64,000 bases of DNA from a virus (taxonomy: Duplodnaviria; Heunggongvirae; Uroviricota; Caudoviricetes), in IMG/VR virus record IMGVR_UViG_2687453508_000006; one strand, given 5' to 3'. Within the stretch, counting starts at the first letter, position 1. Every line of letters begins with the position of its first letter. Of the stretch, positions 1 through 3,000 are shown in pieces. The position numbers are program-made.

Positions 1-3000
1 AGGCGCAGTTTTACCGTCACAGGTGATTCTCCAGACGAAGACCCAGAACACCGGCAATCTCTTCCAGCACCTTGCGCTCTTCCGGCTCAATTTCGCCGTC
101 TGCCTCCGCAATGGCCACCGCCACATCCAGCACATCTTCCGCTTCACGCGTATCGTGTTTCACATCCTCAATCTCACGTAACGCCGCACGACGACCAGTT
201 TTAAAGTTCGTATCCAGCTGACCGATAATGGTTGCGCTAATCGCATTAATTTCTGACGTAAACGCGGACAGCGCAGGCTGATTACGCAGTACCTGTTCGA
301 TCTTCGCTTTCTCGGATGCCTCACATTCACCATCTGCACAGGCCACCAGGTATGCGGCGTTAATCACCACCTGTGCCAGATCGCGTTTTTCAAACTTTTT
401 AATTTCCGTTGCCGCTCTGCGGGTTTTCTTTTTGAAGATTCCAAACATCGTGACGTTCCTTTGGGTGGGTGAGCCAACGCCCGGGAGCGATCTGCCCACA
501 GAGAAAGTCACACTGACCACTCCGTAAGCTCACCCCCGAAAGGCTCTGTGGTTGGTATGCGCCGGGCGTGGCGCAGATACAAAAAAGGCCCGCCGAAGCG
601 AGCCTGGAAAATAAGTGTGGCGCGTTGTAGTGGAGTCGAACCACTGACCGATTGCTTAGAAGGCAATTGCTCTGTCCGGCTGAGCTAACAACGCAGAATA
701 CCGATAATGGACCGCCATCGGGGACCCGGCCCCGCACCAACAACCCTGTTATGGTGTCGTCTGCTCTTCCTGATAAGCTAATGGCGGTTTGTGATGGTGG
801 CCCTTGCTGGATTTGAACCAGCGACCTGGCGATTATGAGTCGCTCGCTCTCACCACTGAGCTAAAGGGCCGAGCCAAAAAATAATAATCAGATGAAAATC
901 AATAATCAAGCCCTTGCCTGGATACATATCTGTCTGGCGGGAAGCCATAATAGCGGTGAAATACAGAAATAAAGTAGGACCGGCTTGAATAACCACATTT
1001 TTCTGCTACAGCCTGTCCATATCCATACCGGGAACATAACATATTTACAGCAACACGCATCCGCTCTTCCAGCAACAAGCGACTGAACATGCCCCCTTCA
1101 TTTTTCAGTTTTGTCTTTAACAAACTCTCACTCATATGCAACTGTAGAGCAATCGCACCAAGCGTCCAGCTTGCTGATATATCTGTCTGAATTATCGCCC
1201 TGACTTTGGCACTTATGCTGGATAAACATCCACTTAAAAACAATGACATCCGTTCATCTGTTTCAAACAGAGACAGGCAGGCCATCATAAGAAACATATC
1301 CGTGACCTCTCCGGAAAATCCCTGGCTGGTAATTAAAGCCGCAGCCAACGCAGGATTGTTGGGTTCCAGCAACAGGTAAAGCGGAATGTCAGTCAGACGA
1401 GTCCTCGTCAGCTTATGCTGACTTTCCAGATATTGACTTACGACGGATTCGCTTATATCGACAATTTTAACTTTGCCATAATGCATAAGGAAAAGCTCCC
1501 TGATGCATTTGGTGGCCAGAACGACTGAGCCTGGCTTAAGTGACAACGTATCCTTTTCAAGAAAAATATTAATTGGGGAGCAAACCATGATAACTGAACA
1601 GACAACAGCCATTATAATTTTACTTTCATTAGCAATTGGTTAGCTCAATTATAGCCCCAAAAGGTAAATTATCATCAACACATAAGCAAAGGACTGACAG
1701 GTGCCGCCCCCCCCACCAGCCGCCCATTTACCACAAATAAAAAGCCTTCAGGACTGAATGCGTCTGTAACAACCGCACTGATAGTCTGCCAGACCCGCCA
1801 TAACCAGCTGGGTCAGTATTAACTGGCAGCGTTCGCGTGAAAGGTAAGTATTCTGCGCAATCTCCCCGACTGTCGCCGGTTCGGTAACGCTTAATTCATT
1901 AAACACCACTCTGGCGGTTTCTGTCATATCCTGCTGTTTTAGCATGTCTTTTTCCCTTTTCCGGTTAACGTGACATACCAATAACTCTTGTCGAAAAAGC
2001 CAGCAAGTTGAAAGACCGGTATTAGCAACCACCAGCGCGTTTAACGCCCCGTGCCGTTTTTCAGTCATAAAAAAACCCGCAAAAAGCGGGCTCTTTCAAA
2101 TGTCCATGTCTGCTATTCGCCTCGCGGTACAGCTTTGCGAAGCTTACCGGAATTGAAGCAGTTTTTACGTCAAAAAGCAATAACTTTTTTCTCTATACCA
2201 AAAGCCATAACCATTGGTTTGTACAAAATAAATTCTGCCACCTTTAGCCAATGCTCAATGCGTCTTTCACAGGTTCTTAAACTCCATTCCGGATGTGCAT
2301 CATTCAGCAATTCAGCCATTTTGCGCTTAGTCATCCCCCGCCCCACATAACGCTGACTCAGAACATTGAGCAGCCCGGGATAACCTGCCAGTACTTCACC
2401 AATAACCCTATCGATTATTAACGCCTCTGAATCGGTACAATGTGCCAGCCAGCTTTTTTGATTGCCGTTGATCATATCCCGCAAAAAAGCCTCAAGTTCA
2501 GGTTTGTCCAGACCCGCTTTTTTCATCCTCCGGAGCGCCTCGTTAATTGCCGTTTTTGTCAGCTTTTTAGAGGTCAGTAATTGGTTGAACATATTTCCCG
2601 TCTTACCGTCGCCAATATACGACCAACGCCCCCACATACGCAGTTTCCCCTGGATCCAGACACTTTCCAGCGTTTTCAGGCGTAAATGCTCACCGCTTTT
2701 GCCTGTAATTTCCGGGTATATCATATTTATGCTCACTCACTTTCAATTTTGTAAATCTTCACGCCCAGCCGCCCACCAGAAACGAGCTAGCCGCGCACAA
2801 TATTGATTTCATCAAACTGCTCGTCGTCTATGAGAAGTCCGGCATGCGTCAGCGCATCCAGTGGTGCTTTCAGGATATTGTCCAGGTCACGACGGCGCTT
2901 ATCCGGTGGCTCTGCAATAATCTTTATCGCCAGCCTTCCGGACAGGTTTAATTTCAGCCGCTGCTGGCGAACAATAAGTGCCACATCCCGGCGATAACGC

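Follow-up and report, generated by a model that had tools for sequence, protein, structure and literature searches.

The tciA-tciB gene pair at the stx2AB junction: the accessory region 3' of the Q gene in Escherichia coli O157:H7 prophage Sp11

What lies 3' of the late antiterminator gene Q in a defective prophage of Escherichia coli O157:H7? We analyzed one end of a 64,000-nucleotide stretch of viral DNA (the window; IMG/VR record IMGVR_UViG_2687453508_000006), with emphasis on the genes that follow Q. This region is very probably the Q-proximal accessory ("moron") slot in the late operon of the defective lambdoid prophage Sp11, assembled from cassettes that are exchanged independently of one another. 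One of these cassettes, the gene pair tciA-tciB, is an alternative to the toxin genes stx2AB of Stx2a and Stx2k phages: both begin at the same junction, window position 570. An earlier interpretation made from the DNA alone (the sequence-only reading) had assigned the cluster to the Q-proximal slot of a lambdoid late operon and the TerB gene to the place of stx; our analysis supports the first assignment, and the shared junction bears out the second.

Accessory cassettes 3' of the Q gene in Sp11

Bases 1-2,800 of the window are 100% identical to positions 2,189,034-2,191,833 of the O157:H7 Sakai genome, within the annotated prophage Sp11 (Sakai position = 2,189,033 + window position), to positions 1,904,086-1,906,885 of EDL933 (O-island 57, OI-57) and to several hundred other O157 genomes. 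The locus is thus already known: two reference genomes carry it, its AraC-family regulator has been studied since 2011, and an accessory-gene insertion site 3' of the Q-antiterminated promoter pR', with Sp11 named, has been described (Tree et al. 2014). Its value as a discovery is small, and the usefulness of the present analysis lies in corrections and added detail. All genes of the cluster are on the minus strand, and the Sakai and RefSeq annotations agree with the gene list of the sequence-only reading, every element of which is present at the coordinates given there; a decayed argN, a second terminator and the start of tciB are additions to that list. In the order of transcription, the features are as follows.

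2170-2724, minus strand: Q-type late antiterminator gene (ECs2193), 184 amino acids, DUF1133 family and a distant Q21-family relative
2118-2181, minus strand: candidate pR' (late promoter) and the conserved block at the start of its transcript, placed by conservation
2068-2098, minus strand: tR'-type intrinsic terminator, GC core CCCGC/GCGGG, loop UUUUU, U7 tract
1748-1945, minus strand: 65-amino-acid gene (ECs2192), putative small winged-helix DNA-binding protein, phrog_331
1648-1678, minus strand: candidate sigma-70 promoter of the AraC-family gene, perfect TATAAT at 1648-1653 (promoter scan, 10/12 matches)
899-1612, minus strand: AraC/XylS-family regulator gene (ECs2191), 237 amino acids, intact, most probably psrB
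881-909, minus strand: candidate promoter of the tRNA cassette, TTGATT, 17 nucleotides, TATTAT (promoter scan)
795-870, minus strand: ileZ, tRNA-Ile2 (CAU), Rfam tRNA score 72.5 bits
708-788, minus strand: decayed argN, a tRNA-like remnant; both ends align to argN of Stx phages, the center does not
618-694, minus strand: argO, tRNA-Arg (UCU), Rfam score 67.3 bits (gathering score 29), anticodon tct according to ARAGORN, argO5 in Sakai
586-605, minus strand: intrinsic terminator closing the tRNA cassette, 8-bp stem with 6 GC pairs, U6 (terminator scan)
17-448, minus strand: tciA (ECs2190), stand-alone TerB-domain protein, 143 amino acids, intact
1-20, minus strand: 5' end of tciB (DUF3927), whose GTG (18-20) shares bases with the tciA stop; tciB continues beyond the window

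How freely are these parts exchanged? Among 80 viral contigs encoding relatives of this Q (79-100% identity), the gene orders 3' of Q are combinatorial and include both Q-tRNAs-Stx2AB-NanS and Q-tRNAs-TerB-TciB-NanS. The choices observed are the 65-amino-acid gene or nothing; an AraC gene, a DNA methylase gene or nothing; various sets of tRNAs; and TerB-TciB, Stx2A-Stx2B or nothing, followed by the NanS-p esterase and holin genes. Pairwise comparison with Stx2a and Stx2k phages, the Sakai prophage Sp14 and phage JLK-2012 located the junctions; those with the first three are given here, in window positions.

Stx2a phage: shared 1996-1712, the 65-amino-acid gene, and 874-570, the tRNAs with their terminator; no further similarity until past tciB
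Stx2k phage: shared 2043-570, continuous and including the AraC gene; stx2 stands where Sp11 has tciA-tciB
Sakai Sp14: shared from 874 onward through tciA, tciB and the esterase gene; no AraC or 65-amino-acid gene, with the tRNAs directly after Q

The mosaic junctions and the distribution of the cassettes are direct observations, as are the presence, absence and swapping between related phages that are traits of morons; the promoter-like sites and terminator that also belong to such elements are predicted. Base composition differs along the cluster: the G+C content is 44% in psrB, falling to 37-41% in local windows, and 52-57% on the tRNA/tciA side. A slot filled from a few interchangeable cassettes with sharp junctions explains how regulator, tRNA and toxin genes are shuffled among the prophages of enterohemorrhagic E. 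coli (EHEC).

Is a TerB gene in the stx position unusual, as had been proposed? The tciA product scores 53.4 bits against the Pfam TerB profile (PF05099; cut-off 24.4), matches phrog_632 over its full length at 1e-68 and aligns through residues 15-137 with the Klebsiella TerB structure (2JXU, 2.9e-7), and its open reading frame (ORF) is intact. The gene is common: 804 of 5,426 complete E. coli genomes carry tciA (median four copies, maximum eight), and it likewise follows Q or tRNA genes in Sakai Sp14, in Sp6, where it survives as a remnant, and in phage JLK-2012. TerB relatives are found in 131 phage records, among them P1-like phage-plasmids (their copy goes by the name tciA) and lytic jumbo phages that infect Erwinia or Salmonella, and TerB is among the genes most often located near the PasA/PasC small RNAs in prophages of enteropathogenic E. 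coli and EHEC (2026 preprint). The proposal therefore fails: this is a standard multi-copy prophage gene. Its copy in Sp6/CP-933N is truncated or carries an internal stop.

Nor should tciA be read as a tellurite-resistance determinant. Its neighbors are tRNA genes, tciB and the nanS-p esterase gene, and terZ, terA, terC, terD and terE are absent; because no ter operon surrounds it, "tellurite resistance" is here the name of a family and not a function. The partner gene tciB (ECs5731 in Sakai) encodes a 55-amino-acid protein with two hydrophobic stretches (Pfam DUF3927, 62.3 bits), and tciA, which encodes a cytoplasmic TerB domain, is translationally coupled to it. A search of an anti-phage defense library with the four proteins of the cluster gave no meaningful match.

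The two tRNAs, which had been proposed to represent the tRNA cassette of the Stx-phage slot, indeed belong to an ileZ-argN-argO cassette in which argN has decayed, and both pass the Rfam covariance model. Although ARAGORN reads ileZ as a tRNA-Met, RefSeq annotates it as tRNA-Ile and Sakai as ileZ5; it is 89% identical to ileX of K-12 and clearly differs from a metT sequence. It keeps the pairs C4-G69 and C5-G68, which are TilS determinants. The 81-nucleotide argN remnant was not called by ARAGORN even at relaxed thresholds, nor by Rfam at E<=1. Its acceptor stem and D arm are intact, whereas other sequence has taken the place of the entire anticodon arm (now an 8-bp stem with a 6-nucleotide loop) and T loop; the remnant nevertheless folds into a cloverleaf-like shape, and the 100-nucleotide spacer between the two tRNAs folds at -31.9 kcal/mol. 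The same form of the remnant is present in eight loci, and other loci show an intermediate, point-mutated argN. So sharp a replacement looks like patch exchange more than gradual decay.

The cassette appears to have its own transcription signals. The candidate promoter ends 11 nucleotides before ileZ, and the Stx2a phage keeps TATTAT at the same distance from ileZ despite a different upstream gene; in an Stx2 phage, a start site driving the tRNAs has been mapped (Sy et al., PMC7547250). The closing terminator (-14.6 kcal/mol, z -3.7) is conserved in Stx2a and Stx2k phages, where it stands just upstream of stx2A. Together, promoter-like site, ileZ, decayed argN, argO and terminator would supply tRNAs for ATA and AGA/AGG codons, which are frequent in psrB and in neighboring phage genes. 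Since psrB is rich in two of these codons (ATA 16.9 and AGG 16.9 per 1,000 codons), we infer that the adjacent tRNAs plausibly help its translation.

The 65-amino-acid gene is common to Stx2a and Stx2k phages (~94-97% amino-acid identity). Its product matches phrog_331 at 3.9e-37, and some sources label it "TrmB family transcriptional regulator"; the Pfam TrmB score is 18.3 bits, below the cut-off of 25.6. A single-sequence structure model, with a mean predicted local distance difference test (pLDDT) score of 52, has three helices compatible with a helix-turn-helix and was too poor for a fold search. We rejected a 106-amino-acid version of the ORF that begins right after the tR' terminator: the 65-amino-acid core is conserved in 37 loci, while the in-frame N-terminal extension is not kept as coding sequence, being closed by stops or unrelated in several relatives. 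In Sakai Sp4 the 65-amino-acid gene is frameshifted.

Q, the candidate late promoter and routes of expression

How might these genes be expressed? The protein encoded upstream of the cassettes matches Pfam DUF1133 over its full length (349 bits), passes Phage_antitermQ (PF06530; 33.1 bits against a cut-off of 26), a profile assigned to the Q21/Q933W family (Yin et al.), and matches phrog_753, "anti-termination protein Q-like", at 5e-81; Sakai annotates it as "phage antiterminator". Its match to the solved Q21 chains 6P18 and 6JNX is weak (E ~5e-4). Aligning the post-Q region of the 80 contigs gave 36 distinct sequences, the window included. Across these, the TTG of a -35 element, a 17-nucleotide spacing and AAACTGCTTCAAT are invariant, while the spacer sequence and the 3' end of Q vary; the next ~30 nucleotides after AAACTGCTTCAAT are nearly invariant and give way to a variable stretch and then to a GC-rich hairpin with a U tract. 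We infer from this conservation that the block is an extended -10 promoter and the candidate pR'. On the minus strand its putative elements are a -35 TTGCTT (2175-2180), a TG (2159-2160) and a -10 TTCAAT (2152-2157), with a predicted start near A2145. A pause element and a Q-binding element could not be located with confidence in the post-Q block.

A strong tR'-like terminator had been proposed directly 3' of Q, and both its fold energy and the retention of its position across relatives support that proposal. The hairpin AAAGAGCCCGC-UUUUU-GCGGGUUUUUUU has a folding energy of -18.2 kcal/mol (z -5.8), which not one of 200 shuffled sequences reached, although it was absent from the output of a simple terminator scan. 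Relatives of this Q always have a hairpin and U tract at the tR' position, with about four different hairpin sequences found there. One group of viral contigs, in which Q is 83-93% identical and ends earlier, has different sequence next, including a separate hairpin and U tract; a second location of the conserved CTGCTTCAAT promoter block lies elsewhere in those loci, which may have two terminators or a rearranged Q 3' end.

Without Q, transcription from a late promoter at the 3' end of the Q gene would yield an RNA of ~76 nucleotides ending at the tR' hairpin. From antiterminated phage promoters, termination at tR' is known to give short RNAs, namely StxS in Stx phages and IsrK in Gifsy-1 (PMC7547250). 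The predicted Sp11 RNA opens with a conserved 7-bp hairpin, GCUUCGC...GCGAGGC (window 2119-2143, minus strand), in which relatives show one compensated substitution (C-G to U-A) and two that are uncompensated; the hairpin may be conserved for its RNA structure or for contacts between protein and DNA during Q loading. A consensus fold of the short RNA, in which the terminator arms were misaligned, was of little help. A weak Rfam match to isrK (RF01394) covers exactly the predicted ~76 nucleotides; we rejected membership of that family, the score being 19.8 bits against a threshold of 50 and the alignment being carried mostly by the terminator. Matches to STnc100 and STnc370 were likewise set aside, as they are below threshold and overlap a tRNA or a terminator.

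With Q, polymerase would become terminator-resistant and read through tR', the 65-amino-acid gene, psrB, the tRNA cassette with its terminator, tciA-tciB, the nanS-p esterase gene and the lysis genes. The sequence-only reading had held that these genes should be expressed on prophage induction; on such an account, the whole cluster is silent late-operon cargo transcribed only by Q read-through. In its favor, a strong terminator and, before it, Q precede the genes, which all point the same way, read-through of this kind controls the stx genes that fill the slot in Stx phages (PMC7547250), and neither a promoter scan nor inspection found a convincing promoter-like site upstream of tciA, so tciA probably does depend on read-through. 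Sp11, however, has a disrupted repressor and integrase, and neither circularizes, replicates nor is packaged after mitomycin C (Asadulghani et al., PMC2669165). A perfect TATAAT precedes psrB in an upstream region that the Sp11, Sp4 and Stx2k-phage copies share at 95% conservation and that, judged by its sequence, is a candidate psrB promoter; the tRNA cassette in turn has a promoter-like site and a terminator of its own, and a start has been mapped in the equivalent Stx2 cassette (PMC7547250). Expression of the cluster on induction is therefore doubtful, and we regard the silent-cargo explanation as unlikely. Because Sp11 is locked in and non-inducible, psrB and the tRNAs are more likely expressed from their own promoters, and both cassettes look self-sufficient in the lysogen, independent of Q.

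Could the cluster instead be inert debris of a dead prophage, without current function and kept by the clonality of O157:H7? Sp11 is defective, its argN is decayed, sister prophages carry the frameshifted 65-amino-acid gene (Sp4) and the TerB pseudogene (Sp6/CP-933N), clonality and not selection accounts for the 100% identity among O157 genomes, and deletion of psrB has little phenotype (review of O-island regulators). Against this, comparison with family profiles shows the four ORFs and both tRNAs to be intact and of full length, and other serotypes and free phages carry intact versions of the same modules (90-97% identity). Furthermore, PsrB binds the promoters of hdeA and gadE, and its expression improves survival in mice (review of O-island regulators). 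Decay without function is thus a very improbable account of the region. The SMX-TM transcriptome table has no entry for ECs2189-2193.

What tciA-tciB and the two RNAs might do invites speculation. Rather than conferring tellurite resistance, the gene pair, which also turns up in strictly lytic jumbo phages, may work for the phage itself at the membrane, where it could for instance time lysis, exclude superinfecting phages or sense stress; the ~76-nucleotide RNA may be an StxS-like trans-acting regulator, and the argN remnant may be a processed tRNA-like RNA; taken jointly, these suggestions are a long shot.

Identity of the AraC-family regulator

Which regulator does the cluster encode? The product of the AraC-family gene matches Pfam HTH_AraC (50 bits in two stretches; cut-off 26.6) and HTH_18 (37.8 bits; cut-off 33.6) at residues 155-230. 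Its best NCBIfam matches are YdeO (106 bits, full length, below cut-off) and GadX, and among solved structures the GadX DNA-binding domain (3MKL, 2.2e-18) comes closest. The protein cluster is named in its sources only as "helix-turn-helix domain-containing protein". The start of the gene is ambiguous (window 1486-1612, minus strand): Sakai annotates 195 amino acids from an internal ATG (M43) preceded by GGGAG, and the 237-amino-acid form is backed by RefSeq, phrog_1450 and the YdeO profile, although its ATG has a weak ribosome-binding site. A run of eight G (window 1707-1714, minus strand) lies ~30 nucleotides upstream of the candidate psrB -35 element; the Sp4 and Stx2k-phage copies have GGGTGTTAG in its place and one viral contig has seven G, a difference that could be length variation or a sequencing artefact.

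Position, paralogy and genomic context lead us to identify the gene, with high confidence, as psrB. PsrB is an AraC-like protein 90% identical to PsrA and is encoded by Z2104 of OI-57, an island that corresponds to the Sp11/Sp12 region of Sakai; both occur only on prophages, beside effector loci and Pch regulators (review of O-island regulators). The published OI-57 range in EDL933, 1,849,324-1,929,825, has the markers nleG2-3, nleG6-2 and nleG5-2 (review of O-island regulators); it encloses the EDL933 match of the window, and Sp11 carries the same three genes together with pchB. No other AraC-like gene is present in Sp11 or in the window, which also covers sequence downstream of Sp11. O157 genomes typically hold two copies of the gene, and the paralogue in Sakai Sp4, which adjoins pchA, is 90.7% identical. 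The sequence-only reading had pointed to prophage-encoded AraC-like regulators that act on acid resistance and type III secretion; the gene falls in that very family and most probably is PsrB itself. PsrB raises acid resistance and indirectly represses type III secretion (review of O-island regulators); the Sp11 gene, if it is psrB, would act by activating gadE and hdeA.

It is highly improbable that the gene is instead psrA or a third, uncharacterized paralogue, a possibility raised by the lack of a direct sequence or locus-tag match and by OI-50 assemblies without an AraC gene, which suggest that published island labels may rest on an old, imperfect EDL933 assembly: the EDL933 match falls inside the published OI-57 range, the OI-57 nleG markers are in Sp11, and the typical O157 genome has exactly two copies, the Sakai pair being as similar as published for PsrA and PsrB.

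Several points weigh against the picture of an expressed PsrB in an accessory slot served by Q. Sp11 is non-inducible for excision and replication, which leaves the production of Q in doubt. The consensus promoter scan did not list the proposed pR', and the -10 element TTCAAT is without the usual A at -11. Deletion of psrB had little effect on secretion (review of O-island regulators), which suggests weak native expression. The identification of PsrB itself rests on position, paralogy and context rather than on a direct sequence match; a text search of the literature for ECs2191 gave no match and found Z2104 only in the review of O-island regulators. That review places PsrA (Z1789) in OI-50, yet an AraC gene is missing from both Sakai Sp6 and CP-933N of the corrected EDL933 assembly; the OI-50 label may go back to the original EDL933 assembly.

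Neighboring features and comparison with known systems

Two further features lie on the minus strand upstream of Q. A sok antitoxin RNA at window positions 5164-5338 (113.5 bits against a threshold of 59) adjoins the annotated hok/mokC gene of Sp11, forming a known type I toxin-antitoxin module of the early-right region. Between this module and the DUF968/rusA/Q genes, positions 4550-4894 encode a 114-amino-acid secreted "stress tolerance" protein of the YgiW/YdeI family (ECs2197), another accessory gene in the early-right operon of Sp11.

How does the slot compare with known systems? Among the closest counterparts are the Stx2 phages of the 933W/Sp5 type and phiSTEC1575-Stx2k, which have the same 65-amino-acid gene, tRNA cassette, terminator and downstream esterase gene, and, in the Stx2k phage only, the AraC gene. 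Sp11 differs in having tciA-tciB for stx2AB, the AraC gene for the DNA methylase gene of Stx2a phages, a decayed argN and a DUF1133-type Q. The Q cassette resembles those of Q21 and Q933W in passing PF06530, in its weak similarity to Q21 and in having the candidate promoter block and the terminator directly 3' of the gene; the protein is, however, only distantly related to Q21 and is filed by Pfam mainly as DUF1133. The predicted short RNA, with a 5' hairpin and a terminator hairpin, would arise in the same way as StxS and IsrK, although it is much shorter than StxS, the 3' end of which lies 258 nucleotides from its promoter (PMC7547250).

The regulator is an AraC/XylS protein like PsrB/PsrA, PatE, YdeO, GadX and AppY, and its closest profiles, YdeO and GadX, belong to regulators of the same acid-resistance genes; with PsrB it shares an effector- and pch-carrying prophage in OI-57 and a second, closely similar copy in the genome, and we found no difference between the two. 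The TerB-like gene differs from the terB of terZABCDE operons in its setting and resembles the tciA-tciB(-tciC) genes of P1 and P1-like phages, in which a stand-alone TerB protein of ~143 amino acids is followed by a small membrane protein, often beside tRNA genes. P1-like TciA is ~40% identical to the Sp11 protein, and no tciC was seen.

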